Assembly: GCA_963790475.1 (NCBI GenBank)
Contig: CAWBOS010000006.1
Span: 352,001 to 416,000, forward strand
DNA length: 64,000 bases
Reading direction: 5' to 3'
From: an uncultured delta proteobacterium
Lineage (GTDB): Bacteria; Desulfobacterota; RBG-13-43-22
Shown: positions 50,922-56,960 of the stretch, one piece after another
How the letters are laid out: each line of letters begins with the position of its first letter
How positions within the stretch are numbered: position 1 is the stretch's first letter
The notes under the pieces: generated by a model
The model's input: the letters and a program-made list of their open reading frames with translations, nothing else
The model's database searches: none
What the model was told of the DNA's origin: nothing
Program-made: the position numbers and the translations under genes

Positions 50922-51812
50922 ATGGTGATCGGCCATCGGGGGGGCGCCGGGCTCATGCCCGAAAACACTCTGGCCTCCTTTAAACGCGGTTGCGAGCTCG
51001 GTATCGACGCCATCGAACTCGATGTCCTGGTATCGGCCGATGGTCAGATGGTCGTGCATCACGATTACAAACTGAATCCGGCCATCGCCCGCTCGGCCGA
51101 TGGAGTCTGGGTATCCTCCGGGTCACAGCCGGCCATCAAGGACCTGACCCTGGCCCAACTCAAATCTTATGACATCGGCCGGCTGAACCCCAAGACCACC
51201 TATGCGGCCCAATTTCCGGAGCAGATCGCCATAGACGGCGAGAGGATCCCCACCTTCAAGGAAGTCATCGATCTGTTCAAGAAATCGTGCAATCCCACCA
51301 CCCGGCTGTTGGTTGAGATCAAGACCTCCCCGGAAGAGCCTGAGCTGGCTCTGCCGCCGGAAGTGATTTCGGACAAGATCGTGAAAATGGTAAGGGATGA
51401 GGGGATCGCCGGGCGCACTTGGATAATCTCATTCGATTGGCGGAACCTGGCGCACATCCAGAAGATCGCCCCGGAGATAATGACCGGCTATCTGACCATC
51501 GATACGCCCCGCTCGAGCAACCTGAAGCCGAACCAGCCCGGGGCATCGCCCTGGCTGGCCGGAATCGATATCAAAGCCTTCAACGGATCGGCACCCCGGG
51601 CGGTAAAAGCGGCCGGCGGCCGTATCTGGTCTCCTTATTTCAAAAACTTGACTCCGGAGTCACTTTCGGAAGCCCGGCAACTTGGGTTGATGGTAAGCGT
51701 CTGGACGCCCGACAATCCCGATGATTTGCGGAAGATGATCGAAATGAAGGTGGATGCGATCACTACCAACCGGCCTGATGTGCTTAAGAAAATACTGGAG
51801 GACAAAAGATAA
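50922..51812 (+). CDS. Glycerophosphodiester phosphodiesterase
   Basis: GHRGGAGLMPENT, IELDV...VVHHD, EIKT and ITTNRPD. Confidence 0.93.
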   Translation: MVIGHRGGAGLMPENTLASFKRGCELGIDAIELDVLVSADGQMVVHHDYKLNPAIARSADGVWVSSGSQPAIKDLTLAQLKSYDIGRLNPKTTYAAQFPEQIAIDGERIPTFKEVIDLFKKSCNPTTRLLVEIKTSPEEPELALPPEVISDKIVKMVRDEGIAGRTWIISFDWRNLAHIQKIAPEIMTGYLTIDTPRSSNLKPNQPGASPWLAGIDIKAFNGSAPRAVKAAGGRIWSPYFKNLTPESLSEARQLGLMVSVWTPDNPDDLRKMIEMKVDAITTNRPDVLKKILEDKR

Positions 51813-52032
51813 CCCTAATAAATTTGGCCGTTCCGTTCGATTTTGCCTTTTGAGGATCAGCGCATTTCCCCGCTCGAGTTTTATCTTTCTCTCGGTCTAT
51901 TTTAGACGCGGAGCCCTGTTGAGGCAGCTTTTTCAATCTACAAAAATATTTACAAAAAATAGTTGCTTGATAATTGTCAGATGATATGCTAATAAGTTAT
52001 CGTATAATAATTAAATATTAAGGGGGGGCGGG

Positions 52033-52317
52033 ATGCGCTTTATTTCAGTCAGAGAATTAAGTACCAAACCCAAAAAAATCTGGGTGGAAATGCAAGAAGA
52101 GGAAATCGTTATTACCTCAAACGGCAAGCCTATTGCTCTCCTCTCGGGGGTGACGGAAAAAAACCTGGAAAAGACTCTCCAATCCATACGCCGGGCCCGG
52201 GCACTTATGGCTTTGGATGAGATGCAAAAGAAATCTTTGAAATTGGGGTTGAATAATCTATCCGATGCCGAAATTGAGGAGGAAATCAGAACCGTTCGAA
52301 AGAGCCGTAAACGATGA
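52033..52317 (+). CDS. Phd/YefM-family antitoxin
   Basis: MRFISVREL...IVITSNGKPIALL; overlaps the PIN gene (ATGA). Confidence 0.88.
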   Translation: MRFISVRELSTKPKKIWVEMQEEEIVITSNGKPIALLSGVTEKNLEKTLQSIRRARALMALDEMQKKSLKLGLNNLSDAEIEEEIRTVRKSRKR

Positions 52318-52724
52318 TTATCGTACTTGATACCAACGTGGTCGTTTCAGGTATCTTCAAGCCCTACGGTAAAGCCGCCGCCATTCTCCGCCTGGTAGTC
52401 AGTGGATTGCTTACCCCGGCTTACGATCAACGGATCCTGGGGGAATATCGCGAGGTTTTGAATCGTCCCAAGTTTCACTTTTCGGAAGAATCAGTTGCCA
52501 ATTTCCTGAACCAGATTGATGAGGAAGGAATGTTGGTTGCCGCTAAACCTCTTTCTTTTTCTCTCCCGGACCCTGACGATGAACCTTTCCTGGAGGTAGC
52601 CCTTTCTTCAAAAGCCGTTGCTCTCATAACCGGGAATAAACGCCACTTCCCCAACAAGGTCTATGGGAAAACGAGGATACTTTCCCCTGCGGAATTTTTG
52701 GAGATATTCGGGAATAAATTGTAA
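52314..52724 (+). CDS. PIN-domain toxin (VapC-like, PIN_3 type)
   Basis: IVLDTNVVVS, EYREVL.RPKF, DPDDEPFLE and LITGNKRHF. Confidence 0.9.
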   Translation: MIIVLDTNVVVSGIFKPYGKAAAILRLVVSGLLTPAYDQRILGEYREVLNRPKFHFSEESVANFLNQIDEEGMLVAAKPLSFSLPDPDDEPFLEVALSSKAVALITGNKRHFPNKVYGKTRILSPAEFLEIFGNKL

Positions 52725-52995
52725 GCCGACCCTTCCGATCTCTCTCAGGCTACTTTTAGGATGTGACCGGTTAGCAGGAAGGATTTCCCGGCTATATTAA
52801 TTTCTTACACCTATAAACAAATGACTTTGAAAAGTTTCGAATTTATGAATTACGATTTGAAATATGCGGTGGCTACTCCCCGAATTCCATCACCCTCTTT
52901 TGATGGCAGGATGGGCAAAAGTGACGGCGTTTGCAGGAAAAACCCATGAGGTATTCTTGGCCGCAGATTTATTTTCGATGTCACTACGAAATAGG

Positions 52996-53415
52996 CTATT
53001 TAGGTAGGAATATATCGGTTATTTCTAAAGCCAATGTAGCTGCTATTTGCTTAATTTTTGGTCTTGGCACATCGTGAAGATATACAATATTGCCGTGATA
53101 TGGATTATCTCCATAATCTTGTGATATTTTCCTCTCATATTTCAAGGAATTTGTTGATTGAGGTTTCTCATTCACGCGATCAATAGCTCTGCGTGGAAGT
53201 CTAAGAGCGCCGAATTTGGCGATAGGTAGTCTAAGGGTGTAACTGACTACTTGGTCATTGTCCTCCCAATTGATAGACGTTTCATACCCACGATCATCTC
53301 TTTGGTCACTTGTTCTAAAATTTGGTTCAAATACCAATGAAGAGATAATACCATCGACTATCCATTCTGCTTTTCGTACACCTCTAATACAATTGTCCGC
53401 ATAATCATTATTCAT
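52996..53415 (-). CDS. Hypothetical protein, possible ADP-ribosyltransferase-like toxin
   Basis: 139 aa in an AT-rich operon; pattern CIRG...F...ETSINW...NPYHGNI. Confidence 0.65.
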   Translation of the reverse strand: MNNDYADNCIRGVRKAEWIVDGIISSLVFEPNFRTSDQRDDRGYETSINWEDNDQVVSYTLRLPIAKFGALRLPRRAIDRVNEKPQSTNSLKYERKISQDYGDNPYHGNIVYLHDVPRPKIKQIAATLALEITDIFLPK

Positions 53416-53425
53416 TGGCGTTATA

Positions 53426-54049
53426 TTAACAAGGTCTCCTTTTTAACCAATCGAGAATCCATAGAAGATCTATAGAGATTAAATCGCCATAGGCTTGTAC
53501 GTTTCCGGTTACACTATCAGATGCAAGAAACCAAGATGAGTCTTCTTGATTCTGTTCAAAGGAAAAGCCGATTCTCCAATGTGGATAAATCCATTCGAAT
53601 AAAATGGATTCTTCACCTTCAAAAGCTCTCAGAGGTTTCAAATTACTAACGTTAATGTCATGCTCCATTAAGGCATAATACAATTTGTTTAAAAAGTCAT
53701 TCGCATTGGGTAGTAATAATTGCTTATCAATAAAACCCATTATACTATTTTTTGCGAGCTGTAAAACAGACTTGACCTCTTTTGATCTTGCCAATAAATC
53801 AATTGGACTTTGTAGTAATACAAATCCTCCCGTTCCAGCAATTAAAGGAGATGGAACTATGAACGTTGAAATAATATCAGTAGTAGCAGATGAAATCGTG
53901 ACTATACCGATCTTTGAAATAATCCCGGCAGGGGTAGGAAAATCATAGTCTTCAGGGTGTGCAATATCCTTTAGGCCAATGATGGGATATGATGGTTCAG
54001 TATCACCCTCGGATAATAAGTTATCTTGAAATTTAGATTGACTTCTCAT
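53426..54049 (-). CDS. Hypothetical protein (low-complexity N-terminus, compact C-terminal alpha/beta domain)
   Basis: 207 aa; ATGA overlap with the upstream gene and 10 nt to the downstream gene; SILFEWIYPHWRIGFSFE...SSWFL. Confidence 0.7.
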   Translation of the reverse strand: MRSQSKFQDNLLSEGDTEPSYPIIGLKDIAHPEDYDFPTPAGIISKIGIVTISSATTDIISTFIVPSPLIAGTGGFVLLQSPIDLLARSKEVKSVLQLAKNSIMGFIDKQLLLPNANDFLNKLYYALMEHDINVSNLKPLRAFEGEESILFEWIYPHWRIGFSFEQNQEDSSWFLASDSVTGNVQAYGDLISIDLLWILDWLKRRPC

Positions 54050-54819
54050 GCTATATCACCATTAATCAATATCTCTTTAGCCAATCCTACACATTCTAAA
54101 TAAATCGAACTAATTTTGTCTTGTGGTAAAGCGCCAGCGTATTCGGCAGAGGTATTCAAATCTAATTCTAATCGCGCGAAGGAATTCTCAGGATTGTTAA
54201 ACTCAAAACCGGCAGAGGAAAATGCGAACTGTTTTAGTACCCCAACTGACCATTTCATAAGTCTATTTATGCTCAAGTTAGCTATGCCTGTAGTTGTATT
54301 CCTGGGTCTGTTAATTTGATACATAAAATCTGAAGATTTGTCGACATCAATTTTTACGCTGGGCAATAATTCTGTAAGAAATTCGTACCCCTCTTTTCTA
54401 CTATTAACTGGTACTTGCAAGATATAACCGACCGCAAATCTGTTTATCGGAGGGAAAGTCTTATACAACTTAGGCATCAATTCAGAAAGCACTTCTTGTG
54501 AATCTAAAAAAGAATCTATGTAAAATTCGCCTTCTATAGGAATATAAAGCCAATCGACTTTTTTAAGATGAACGGATAGGACTAATCTGCCTTTACAATA
54601 GTTACCTTGTTCTTGATATAAATTTTGTTTTGGAAGAATTGATTTCTGCTCAGAAGGCTCGCCAATAACTGCTTCCCACCATTTACTCACGGCAGATTCT
54701 TCAATCTTATCAGAAAAAAATGTAATCCTGATTTGTTCGGCACGCCAACGAGAATATTTTTCTAATTCAGTTATATCCGTGTCCAAAGTAGATGCCTCTG
54801 AATGAAATGTTTTTATCAA
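54046..54819 (-). CDS. Hypothetical protein, distantly TIGR04255-like
   Basis: 257 aa; INRFAVG strand and C-terminal LELDLNT followed by a terminal helix. Start codon uncertain. Confidence 0.65.
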   Translation of the reverse strand: MIKTFHSEASTLDTDITELEKYSRWRAEQIRITFFSDKIEESAVSKWWEAVIGEPSEQKSILPKQNLYQEQGNYCKGRLVLSVHLKKVDWLYIPIEGEFYIDSFLDSQEVLSELMPKLYKTFPPINRFAVGYILQVPVNSRKEGYEFLTELLPSVKIDVDKSSDFMYQINRPRNTTTGIANLSINRLMKWSVGVLKQFAFSSAGFEFNNPENSFARLELDLNTSAEYAGALPQDKISSIYLECVGLAKEILINGDIA

Positions 54820-55323
54820 TTAAAATAATAAGTTGATTTCAATATAAATGATCAAAAATTTTGCCATCTTATGAAAAATTGCAAAGAAAAACGATATAAT
54901 TTTATTATAATAATTCTTATTAGGACTTGCAACTAATAATTTAGACTTAGAATTCAACCTTTTTTGTAAAGGCAACTCCCGAATTGCCCCTGCCCCAACA
55001 AGTTGTACCAGTTTTTATGGGGGCCAACCAATGGAAGTTATCGTCAACGATTATTGTTTGCTATTGTCTTTTTTTAAAAATTGAATTTTGAAGAGTACAG
55101 GAAGCTATTTAAACCGATCAATAACCTGCGGCCAGGTTTTTGTAGCCACAGCCAAATATCATCGATAATTGAGTCGCTATCTTCAAAAGGGTTCCAGATA
55201 CTTTTTATCATAATCTTCTCTTCCTTCAACAAATAACAGAGAGGATGCCATCTTCTCCCCTTGAAAGAGCGCTTTCCCAGAAGATCTCCCCCCCTTACCG
55301 GAATAGAATAGGAGGGGAATAAG

Positions 55324-55406
55324 CCGTCATTCCCGCGGAGGCGGGAATCCAGGTTATTCCAATAGAATCAAAGTCCCTGGATGCCGGATCAAGCCCGGCA
55401 TGACGG
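55324..55406. repeat. Paired palindromic repeat with a dRS3-like core
   Basis: CCGTCATTCCCGCGGAGGCGGGAATCCAG ... CTGGATGCCGGATCAAGCCCGGCATGACGG; contains ATTCCC-N8-GGGAAT. Confidence 0.8.
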
Positions 55407-55469
55407 AGAACAAACAAACTTATAGGTTATTAAAGGTTATTTTCGAACTAAAGATGGTTGAAGAAATCT

Positions 55470-56960
55470 TCATTGAGGGCGGGCTGCTGAATTTTGATTA
55501 TTTTGGGATTCCTTTTTTCCCCGGATCATGGAGGTCCACATTCCAAAGAAGCAGATGGTGGCGGCCACCAGGTAGGCCCGGTGCATCCCGGTCATGAAAG
55601 CGGTCAGCACTTTTTCTCTCTCCGCCGGGGAAGCGGGCCCGTGCAAGACATCGAGGGAGGCGTGTCCGACTACGGCCATCATGACGCTGGCCAGGATGGC
55701 CCCGGCCAGGGCGGTACCGACTACCTGACCGACCGTACGCATCATGGCCAGGAAGCCGCTGGCGATGCCTAAACGATCCCGGGGGATGGACCCCATGACC
55801 GAACTGTTGTTCGGGGATTGAAACAAACCTTGTCCTATCCCTAAGAAGATCAACCGGATCAGGACGTCATGATAATCGGCCTGCGGGGTTAACCCGGAAA
55901 GCCAATAAAGGGTGGCCATGTTGATCGCCATGCCGGTCGTGGAAAGGAGTCGGGCTCCCAGCCGATCGGAGAGCCAGCCGCTCAAAGGGGACACGACCAC
56001 GATGCCCAATGCGGTAGGGGTCATCAGCAGGCCGGCGTGGACCGGGCTGTAACCTAAGGCCAATTGCAAAAAGAAAGGCATCAAAAAGACATTGGCCGAA
56101 AGTGAAAGAAAGGAAAGAAAGCCGGCAATATTACCAAAGCTGAAAAGACGGATTTTAAATAACTGGAGATCGATTAAAGGGTGCTCAGCCCTGGTTTCCC
56201 AAAGGGGAACCAGCAGAAGGGCCGCGGCGGCGATAATCAATTCGCTGATCACTTGCGGTCTGTCCCAGCCCTGTTCTTGTCCGGTGGTCAGGCCGAGGAC
56301 GAGGGCACTCAGCCCGATGATAGTCAGAGCGGCGCCCAAAAAATCGAAACCCTTTTTTTGTCCCAGGGTAGGAGAGACCAAATGCTCCTGCAGAATATAA
56401 ATGGTCATCAAGATGCCGAAAACACCCACCGGCACATTAACATAAAAAATTGCCCGCCAGCTTAAATGACTGACCAAAAAGCCCCCCAGGGTGGGACCGA
56501 CCGTAAAACCGGCGGCCACTACCGTCCCGTTTATACCCAGGGCGCGTCCTCGCTCCTGAGACGGGAATACCGCGGTAACGATGGCAAAGGTATTGGCCAT
56601 GATCATGGCCGCACCCACAGCCTGTATGGAGCGAAAAAGGATCAATTGGTGAATACTTTGGGAAAGGGCGCAGAGGGCCGAACCCGCACTAAAGATAATA
56701 AGCCCCAGGAGGAAGACCTTCTTACGGCCGGTTAAATCAGCCAGACGGCCGAAGGGAAGGAGTAATCCAGTGATGGTCAGCAGATAAGACAAAACCACCC
56801 ATTCGGACAAAGTCAGATTGGCATCAAAGGCGGCCATGATGTTGGGTAGACTGATATTGACGATACTGGCGTCTAAGGTGGCCATAAAGATGCCGATCCC
56901 TACGATGCCTAAGACCCACCAACGATGATTGCGCGCCGATCTTTTCAAAAAGTTTTTCAT
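55470..56960 (-). CDS. MFS transporter, DHA2 family
   Basis: LDASIVNISLP, GRLADLTGRKK and FQSPNNSSVMG; about 14 TM. Confidence 0.93.
   Translation of the reverse strand: MKNFLKRSARNHRWWVLGIVGIGIFMATLDASIVNISLPNIMAAFDANLTLSEWVVLSYLLTITGLLLPFGRLADLTGRKKVFLLGLIIFSAGSALCALSQSIHQLILFRSIQAVGAAMIMANTFAIVTAVFPSQERGRALGINGTVVAAGFTVGPTLGGFLVSHLSWRAIFYVNVPVGVFGILMTIYILQEHLVSPTLGQKKGFDFLGAALTIIGLSALVLGLTTGQEQGWDRPQVISELIIAAAALLLVPLWETRAEHPLIDLQLFKIRLFSFGNIAGFLSFLSLSANVFLMPFFLQLALGYSPVHAGLLMTPTALGIVVVSPLSGWLSDRLGARLLSTTGMAINMATLYWLSGLTPQADYHDVLIRLIFLGIGQGLFQSPNNSSVMGSIPRDRLGIASGFLAMMRTVGQVVGTALAGAILASVMMAVVGHASLDVLHGPASPAEREKVLTAFMTGMHRAYLVAATICFFGMWTSMIRGKKESQNNQNSAARPQ

Follow-up and report, generated by a model that had tools for sequence, protein, structure and literature searches.

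Toxin–antitoxin–chaperone (TAC) systems such as HigBAC and CmdTAC are the closest described counterparts of the locus reported here, an AT-rich cassette of three genes in a stretch of 64,000 nucleotides (nt) from an uncultured delta proteobacterium (RBG-13-43-22; assembly GCA_963790475.1, contig CAWBOS010000006.1, positions 352,001–416,000 of the forward strand). This whole stretch is referred to as the window. In the SecB-type systems, a constant chaperone holds an extension of the antitoxin and doubles as a phage sensor (10.1101/2024.02.24.581848; PMC11618068). HigBAC and CmdTAC share with the cassette the number of three genes, a constant third protein accompanied by varied toxin–antitoxin ‘warheads’, and an antitoxin with an extra, poorly conserved extension; the warhead toxin CmdT is an ADP-ribosyltransferase.

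The differences concern fold, order and orientation. In the window, the gene for the constant protein (gene 1) is the first of the operon and the extension of the presumed antitoxin (gene 2) is N-terminal, whereas in TAC systems the chaperone gene stands last and the chaperone-addiction extension is located at the C-terminus of the antitoxin. Further, gene 1 has no match to SecB and is modelled with a duplicated fold like that of the TATA-binding protein (TBP). Since fold, gene order and side of the extension all differ, the cassette is not a member of the SecB-type TAC group. As judged from sequence comparison, it probably represents a new tripartite family of toxin–antitoxin type, analogous to this group yet distinct from it. 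We give somewhat more than an even chance to the explanation that it is a self-contained, horizontally mobile module of this type in which gene 1 is the holder of the extension of gene 2.

A single conserved component alongside many unrelated toxins is also a trait of Panacea (PanA), reportedly a hyperpromiscuous antitoxin domain, and of NetFlax, which is said to form combinatorial toxin–antitoxin networks. Unlike there, the promiscuous part of the cassette is a separate protein, encoded by gene 1, and the antitoxin-like domain changes with the toxin.

Scans of the three window proteins against Pfam, NCBIfam, PADLOC and PHROGs gave nothing above chance. NCBIfam likewise had no usable match to 30 relatives of gene 1. 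PADLOC-DB v2.0.0 (2023), which carries CmdTAC under an older name, returned 0 families for these proteins at E-values (E) up to 1 and, when 17 proteins from sister cassettes were scanned at E up to 0.01, again 0; there is no full match to a system catalogued in that release. An earlier note on this DNA, made from the sequence alone, had suggested an undescribed family distinct from the SecB-type systems, and the lack of Pfam, NCBIfam and PADLOC matches, the lack of a SecB match for gene 1 and its first position agree with this. In the literature, supplementary candidate lists apart, we found no description of the cassette or of the two families of head proteins treated below, and the matched passages of PMC13069673 do not describe the cassette either. 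Searches for TIGR04255, CHP04255 or IPR026349 and for DUF7689 found no publication, the term ‘sporadically distributed protein’ occurring only in an unrelated paper. A TBP-like or TATA-binding protein-like fold was not found together with toxin–antitoxin systems, and queries for tripartite or three-gene toxin–antitoxin systems with HEPN, MazF or Fic led to general reviews only.

The cassette and its conserved layout

The three genes are arranged as follows, in the order of transcription and with the two parts of gene 2 given separately (ORF, open reading frame; aa, amino acids).

54046–54819, minus strand: gene 1, the constant ‘head’ protein, a 257-aa ORF with a TTG start (246 aa if started at 54786)
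53426–54049, minus strand: gene 2, whole ORF, 207 aa
53780–54049, minus strand: N-terminal part of gene 2 (about residues 1–90), fast-evolving, rich in Ser, Thr, Ile and Val, unconserved beyond close relatives
53426–53779, minus strand: C-terminal domain of gene 2 (about residues 91–207, about 115 aa), conserved, a partner domain specific to the gene 3 family
52996–53415, minus strand: gene 3, presumed toxin with a predicted ADP-ribosyltransferase fold, 139 aa

Four nucleotides (ATGA, 54046–54049) are shared by genes 1 and 2, and a gap of 10 nt (53416–53425) separates genes 2 and 3; ORF list and sequence thus confirm the three co-oriented, closely coupled ORFs from which the earlier note had started. 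The start of gene 1 is more likely at 54786, since close relatives are 244–246 aa long and their alignment begins at residue 12, and since the TTG at this position is preceded by GAGG, 8 nt upstream. The GC content is 0.315–0.385 across 52800–55199, with the minimum of 0.315 in the region upstream of gene 1, as compared with 0.43–0.61 (about 0.5) in the flanks. The AT-richness of the cassette and of its upstream region had been noted before and is real.

The cassette is part of a mobile unit of 2.25 kb. A second genome of the same genus (G010) carries it on contig C328, with 94.6% identity over 52810–54909 and 94.1% over 54483–55060. This contig matches the window nowhere else, and the flanking genes differ on both sides. 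Mobility follows from the presence of the same unit in a different context in the congener and from the distribution of the gene 3 family, which occurs in only two of 401 genomes of the window's phylum.

When one genome per species was scanned, 105 stretches were found to encode a relative of gene 1, and 80 of them were kept (L001–L080). According to their record titles, these span about 15 phylum-level labels, including Chloroflexota, Cyanobacteriota, Acidobacteriota, Planctomycetota, Nitrospirota, Myxococcota, Thermodesulfobacteriota, Pseudomonadota and Bacteroidota. A gene 1 ORF is present in 79 of the 80 loci, an ORF in the position of gene 2 in 75 and one in the position of gene 3 in 69; loci devoid of gene 2 or gene 3 mostly end shortly after gene 1. 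Of the 75 loci with an ORF in the position of gene 2, 63 have an overlap of 4 nt between genes 1 and 2, and 10 have one of 1 nt. Chance does not account for the arrangement, which recurs in 75 of the 79 loci with a gene 1 ORF, mostly with the same 4-nt overlap. What the earlier note had seen at one locus is therefore a conserved gene neighbourhood. The encoded gene 3 proteins comprise 117–326 aa (median 168). At one locus (L021:6726–7994), the equivalent of gene 2 is apparently split between an ORF of 182 aa and a HEAT_2 piece of 122 aa, which precede a third gene of 144 aa.

Exchange of gene 3 and co-variation of gene 2

The third position of the cassette is occupied by different families. 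The 69 gene 3 ORFs fall into clusters of 44, 6, 5, 3, 2 and 2 members and seven singletons, and a profile of the window's own gene 3 had 0 matches among 6164 ORFs of the genome loci of the gene 1 family. By a Pfam scan of 17 representatives, the cluster of three was identified as PemK/MazF (E 8e-17, L038) and the cluster of five as HEPN (E 2.2e-5 for L070, and 0.039). One pair carries DUF2934, a singleton (L059) is Fic-like with a match under the Pfam cut-off (E 0.004), and 10 of the 17 representatives have no Pfam family.

Gene 2 changes in step. The six largest gene 3 clusters each map to a gene 2 cluster of their own, the exception being the HEPN cluster, whose gene 2 falls into three sets. 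A HEAT_2 match (E ≤ 0.01, in many cases below the Pfam cut-off) is found in the C-terminal part of 43 of the 75 gene 2 proteins, all of them within the 48-member gene 2 cluster that accompanies the commonest gene 3 family. For the gene 3 family of the window we analysed 62 metagenome loci with a relative of gene 3, of which 37 have a scorable gene immediately upstream. The C-terminal domain of the window's gene 2 is present in all 37 of these upstream genes, whichever head gene is present, and in none of the 75 gene 2 proteins paired with other gene 3 types. Because gene 3 families vary and gene 2 clusters keep step with them, gene 1 is the constant element, and genes 2 and 3 are swapped as cognate pairs. 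As in type II toxin–antitoxin systems, adjacent and co-oriented small genes change their families together. The tree of gene 1 (81 rows; L033, L044 and L049 were excluded because of split or truncated ORFs, and L061 because it has no ORF) requires 19 changes of gene 3 type, compared with a minimum of 13. Its deep branches are weak and its well-supported branches force just one origin per gene 3 type, so that the rate of swapping is not fixed by the tree.

The commonest gene 3 family (44 loci, e.g. L001:6726–7842) consists of proteins of about 165 aa without known relatives. It has an invariant Ser and an invariant His as well as a conserved N-terminal L-R-x-I-R-K-x-R-W, and is always paired with a gene 2 that ends in HEAT repeats. 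A kinship of this family with the window's gene 3 was considered and rejected (hhalign probability 0.7%), and the two families were kept apart. The third genes of the cluster of six (L019, L040, L044, L046, L055 and L068; e.g. L019:7389–7883) encode proteins of about 160 aa in which the motif ‘LLDTGA’ occurs; they have no Pfam match and, by this motif, may be retropepsin-like effectors of protease type.

Exchange also extends to the head gene. The earlier note had called gene 1 TIGR04255-like, which did not hold at the level of sequence similarity: the TIGR04255 model (cut-off 30 bits) gave no match at E up to 1 to gene 1 and 29 aligned relatives, jackhmmer found no bridge between the two families, and profile–profile comparison with hhalign was not significant, neither with 30 against six sequences (probability 0.2%) nor with 87 against 33 (probability 6%, P 0.0063, 224 collinear columns). 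What did hold is the type of cassette. True TIGR04255 genes in the order to which the window organism belongs also head three-gene cassettes, and the layout of these (about 250–290 aa, then 160–290 aa, then 140–200 aa) is like that of the window. Such cassettes share both the C-terminal domain of the window's gene 2 and its gene 3 family. At 28 metagenome loci, the sequence extends 1.5 kb or more upstream of a gene 3 relative; 19 of these have a TIGR04255 head, four have a head of the gene 1 family and the other five have an unassigned ORF of 190–260 aa in its place. The counts are not independent, since several of the loci are near-duplicates. Gene 3 of L085 and L084 matches gene 3 of L072 and L073, which have heads of the gene 1 family (E 1e-8 to 1e-9), and the gene 2 proteins of L085 and L073 match each other (E 7.5e-5). 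Likewise, gene 3 of L088, a TIGR04255 cassette, matches that of L049 and L057 (E 1.7e-9). Three gene 3 types are common to both head families, with matching gene 2 proteins for two of them. Owing to the shared head position and the shared types of gene 2–gene 3 pair, the two head families appear to be functionally interchangeable, and a head protein is, as far as these comparisons indicate, a constant and obligatory part of the cassette.

A second cassette of the window's own genome (C11:263255–263998; L085:314–2298, minus strand) has a TIGR04255 head of 272 aa, followed by proteins of 265 and 146 aa; the TIGR04255 gene on C11 scores 89 bits. In another TIGR04255 cassette, the third gene (L082:634–1086, minus strand), in the effector slot, is a DUF7689 protein (E 5.4e-40). 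The third gene at L083:631–1065 (minus strand) looks like a close relative of it, as judged by the listed start only.

The protein encoded by gene 2 is built from two parts. In a jackhmmer profile, relatives align only from residues 73–121 or so onward. The conserved domain contains the near-invariant residues E152, R159, G161, F162, E165, S171 and G188, and we read it as the putative antitoxin part. The N-terminal part has no conserved column in the alignment, its approximately 90 residues being alignable only among near-identical relatives. The earlier note had expected an unstructured tail plus a small folded domain; the two-part structure and the conserved domain of about 115 aa stood the comparison, but the variable part is not a tail because it is N-terminal and the conserved domain C-terminal. 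A word-indexed protein search retrieved only three relatives for gene 2, the window's own protein included.

Gene 3 is predicted to have the fold of ADP-ribosyltransferases. Its AlphaFold model has high confidence (predicted local distance difference test, pLDDT, 90.6). Foldseek found no match with this model. In an exhaustive VIA structural search, the first 25 rows contained at least 22 toxins or enzymes of the ADP-ribosyltransferase superfamily, among them AvrPphF ORF2 (score 6.7), tRNA 2′-phosphotransferases (6.2–6.6), DarT, diphtheria toxin, Scabin, TreX, pertussis toxin, CARDS, NarE, RhsP2, TccC3, CopC and MbcT; the top row of a second-look structural search was RhsP2. The ADP-ribosyltransferase-like pattern that the earlier note had inferred from the sequence is thus supported at the level of the modelled fold. 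In 86 aligned members of the family, S47, N104, H107 and G108 are invariant, and R39, D52, G69 and R95 are each present in 85. Position 94 is occupied by Glu in 80 and Asp in five members, and position 11 by Arg in 77 and Lys in nine. ADP-ribosyltransferase clades bind NAD+ through an R-S-E or an H-Y-E triad. R11, S47 and E94, on predicted strands 1, 2 and 4 (residues 8–12, 44–49 and 91–97), resemble an R-S-E set in sequence position and predicted strand.

The motif set of the family is C-[IL]-R-G, E-x-S-I-N-W-E-D, Y-E-R and N-x-Y-H-G-N. A word-indexed search found 10 relatives, and the gene 3 profile, in a full HMMER search, retrieved 774 cluster representatives (E ≤ 1e-3; 622 at 1e-10). Pfam had no match to the 86 relatives, and PDB sequence searches with profiles of 11 and 86 sequences gave no match beyond chance. 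Gene 3 shares the size of about 140 aa, the fold and the adjacent partner with small ADP-ribosyltransferase toxins (Tse2–Tsi2, 5ako; DarT–DarG; MbcT–MbcA; Xre–RES), and the Rhs tips TreX, TreTu and RhsP2 are of the same size class and fold, again with an adjacent protein partner. In contrast to these toxins, it has its own motif set and no sequence similarity to them, its partner domain is new, and a third gene is always present.

The head protein and its possible role

A word-indexed search found 30 relatives of gene 1. Its model (pLDDT 89.9) is a tandem, i.e. duplicated, beta-alpha-beta4-alpha arrangement, which is TBP-like. Foldseek retrieved TBP with probabilities of 0.96–0.99, yet with template-modelling (TM) scores of only 0.24–0.31. 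Neither SecB (PF02556) nor any other Pfam family matched gene 1 at E up to 1; SecB is also absent from the structural matches listed for gene 1, which by itself settles nothing. PDB profile searches with gene 1, the commonest gene 3 family and TIGR04255 gave chance-level rows or none, and the Protein Atlas placed genes 1 and 3 in clusters of ‘hypothetical proteins’ only. Complex predictions with gene 1 as a partner scored 0.25 and 0.00 (mark 0.32), which counts neither for nor against binding.

In the explanation that we favour, gene 3 would most likely use NAD+ to modify or deplete a cellular target, as its modelled fold suggests. Gene 2 would be the cognate neutralizer, the acidic C-terminal domain of which binds and blocks gene 3, while its fast-evolving N-terminal extension would make it dependent on gene 1. 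Gene 1 would do the same job as the TIGR04255 proteins in the sister cassettes; by analogy with the SecB-like chaperone of TAC systems, it would most likely hold or stabilize the extension. The toxin would then be released upon a trigger, e.g. stress or a protein of a phage, and the cassette might thereby serve in defence.

Several observations weigh against this explanation. The N-terminal part of gene 2 shows no conserved motif that gene 1 could recognise. The R-S-E assignment in gene 3 was derived from sequence position and predicted strands rather than from superposition, and the invariant N104, H107 and G108 lie outside what we take to be the textbook ADP-ribosyltransferase motifs. The commonest gene 3 family has no recognisable toxin family; as it accounts for 44 of 69 loci, the case for a toxin slot is drawn from a minority of loci, and the three loci with MazF are identical in gene 1. 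In a survey of 142 ORFs around 79 loci (on either side, the closest ORF of 110 aa or more), the flanking genes are mostly housekeeping genes, only about 15 being related to mobility, defence or toxin–antitoxin systems. Searches of the IMG/VR viral contigs (38 pattern matches, 0 confirmed) and of the PLSDB plasmids did not find gene 1. Finally, gene 1 has many invariant polar residues (R31, R127, N170, N185, R186, D220, T223 and E242), many of them on the sheet of the second half, and these look more like a ligand-binding or active site than a passive chaperone.

The likeliest of the alternatives retains the same toxin–antitoxin pair, but gene 1 would be an enzyme or a sensor of a small molecule or nucleotide instead of a chaperone-like holder. 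It might, for instance, gate the toxin by producing, binding or degrading a signal, or by modifying one of the other two proteins. We regard this as unlikely.

Three-component toxin–antitoxin systems with a DNA-binding autoregulator, namely omega-epsilon-zeta and paaR-paaA-parE, suggest another role for gene 1, with gene 2 as a plain antitoxin. The first position of gene 1 in the operon, the resemblance of its model to the DNA-binding TBP saddle at the high Foldseek probabilities given above, and the absence of a DNA-binding domain recognisable by Pfam from gene 2 would fit such a repressor. However, the TM scores to TBP are low, and gene 1 is acidic, with an isoelectric point (pI) of 5.1 (family median 5.2, 90% of 79 members below 7). 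Together with the pI of 4.7 of gene 2, this is more in keeping with protein partners than with DNA binding. A repressor role also leaves unexplained the long variable N-terminal extension on every gene 2, and we give it only a small chance.

Just as little credit is due to the proposal that there is no toxin system at all, gene 3 being a benign NAD+-dependent modifying or repair enzyme, e.g. similar to RNA 2′-phosphotransferase, with genes 1 and 2 as regulators or substrates. The slot of gene 3 also holds MazF, HEPN and a Fic-like protein, the distribution is patchy (two of 401 genomes of the phylum), the unit is mobile and the partner changes with each effector, all of which is typical of toxin–antitoxin modules and disfavours a benign enzyme. 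Very improbable is an effector–immunity pair for interbacterial attack in which gene 1, as adaptor or chaperone, would deliver the toxin to a secretion machine: although the type VI effector Tse2 is the best structural match of gene 3, several Rhs toxin tips come next, and EspG and Tle4–Tli4 are among the weak matches of gene 1, the gene 3 proteins (117–326 aa, median 168) have no delivery domain in the 17 scanned, the presumed immunity gene precedes the toxin gene, none of the 142 flanking ORFs was recognised as belonging to a secretion-system family, and the hosts include Cyanobacteriota and Chloroflexota, in which type VI secretion is not known to be typical.

The toxin–antitoxin-type module with gene 1 as holder allows a generalization that we put forward tentatively and consider rather doubtful. 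Proteins of the gene 1 type and of the TIGR04255 type may together form a large unrecognised class of constant heads in at least 15 bacterial phyla, TBP-like instead of SecB-like, which act as infection or stress sensors for plug-in toxin–antitoxin warheads; the library of these would comprise ADP-ribosyltransferase-fold, MazF, HEPN, Fic-like and protease-like proteins as well as proteins of unknown fold. If so, the toxin–antitoxin–chaperone principle would have been realised a second time, by independent evolution, in this head class, and the modular design of TAC systems, in which one constant controller is combined with an exchangeable warhead, would have arisen more than once. This reading would also provide a function for TIGR04255 (‘sporadically distributed’) and for an equally unannotated sister family in many environmental phyla, and would add to the toxin catalogue a family of small proteins with ADP-ribosyltransferase fold (774 cluster representatives) together with a dedicated antidote domain. 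A constant controller with swappable toxins would be a natural test bed for how one sensor or holder controls unrelated toxins.

Upstream region and neighbouring genes

Two further features delimit and precede the cassette.

52810–55060: mobile unit of 2.25 kb, the three genes with flanks of about 240 nt on the 5′ side and about 186 nt on the 3′ side
54904–54932, minus strand: promoter-like site upstream of gene 1, TTGCAA-17-TATAAT, 10/12, a consensus match only

The region searched contains 17 promoter-type sites, compared with 10.0 ± 2.9 in shuffled sequences. The approximately 186 nt on the 3′ side of gene 3 (52810–52995) are about 94% identical in the congener and belong to the mobile unit; neither a terminator nor an Rfam match was called there. 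Within 51800–55600, no Rfam family was found and repeats flanking the cassette are chance-like; there is no tRNA between 45000 and 62000.

The cassette converges, tail to tail, on a pair of genes on the plus strand. The first (52033–52317, 94 aa) matches PhdYeFM with E 9e-6 and 25.8 bits, under the Pfam cut-off of 29.8, and the second (52314–52724, 136 aa) matches PIN_3 with E 7.6e-20. Apart from the Phd match being below the cut-off, the Pfam scan upholds the Phd–PIN pair named in the earlier note. The two genes have the canonical layout of a two-gene toxin–antitoxin system, with an ATGA overlap. Their position beside the cassette is probably incidental, because the congener lacks the pair at its copy of the cassette.

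The flanking genes at other loci that are related to mobility, defence or toxin–antitoxin systems include Mrr, a methylase–Mrr fusion, ResIII, three integrases (at near-identical loci), two transposases, CopG, Uma2, a terminase, two capsid genes, CHAT and SecB. The SecB gene (PF02556, E 7.6e-7; L068:8288–8779, minus strand) is a single case. It is located about 400 nt downstream of the cassette on the opposite strand, which may be due to chance.

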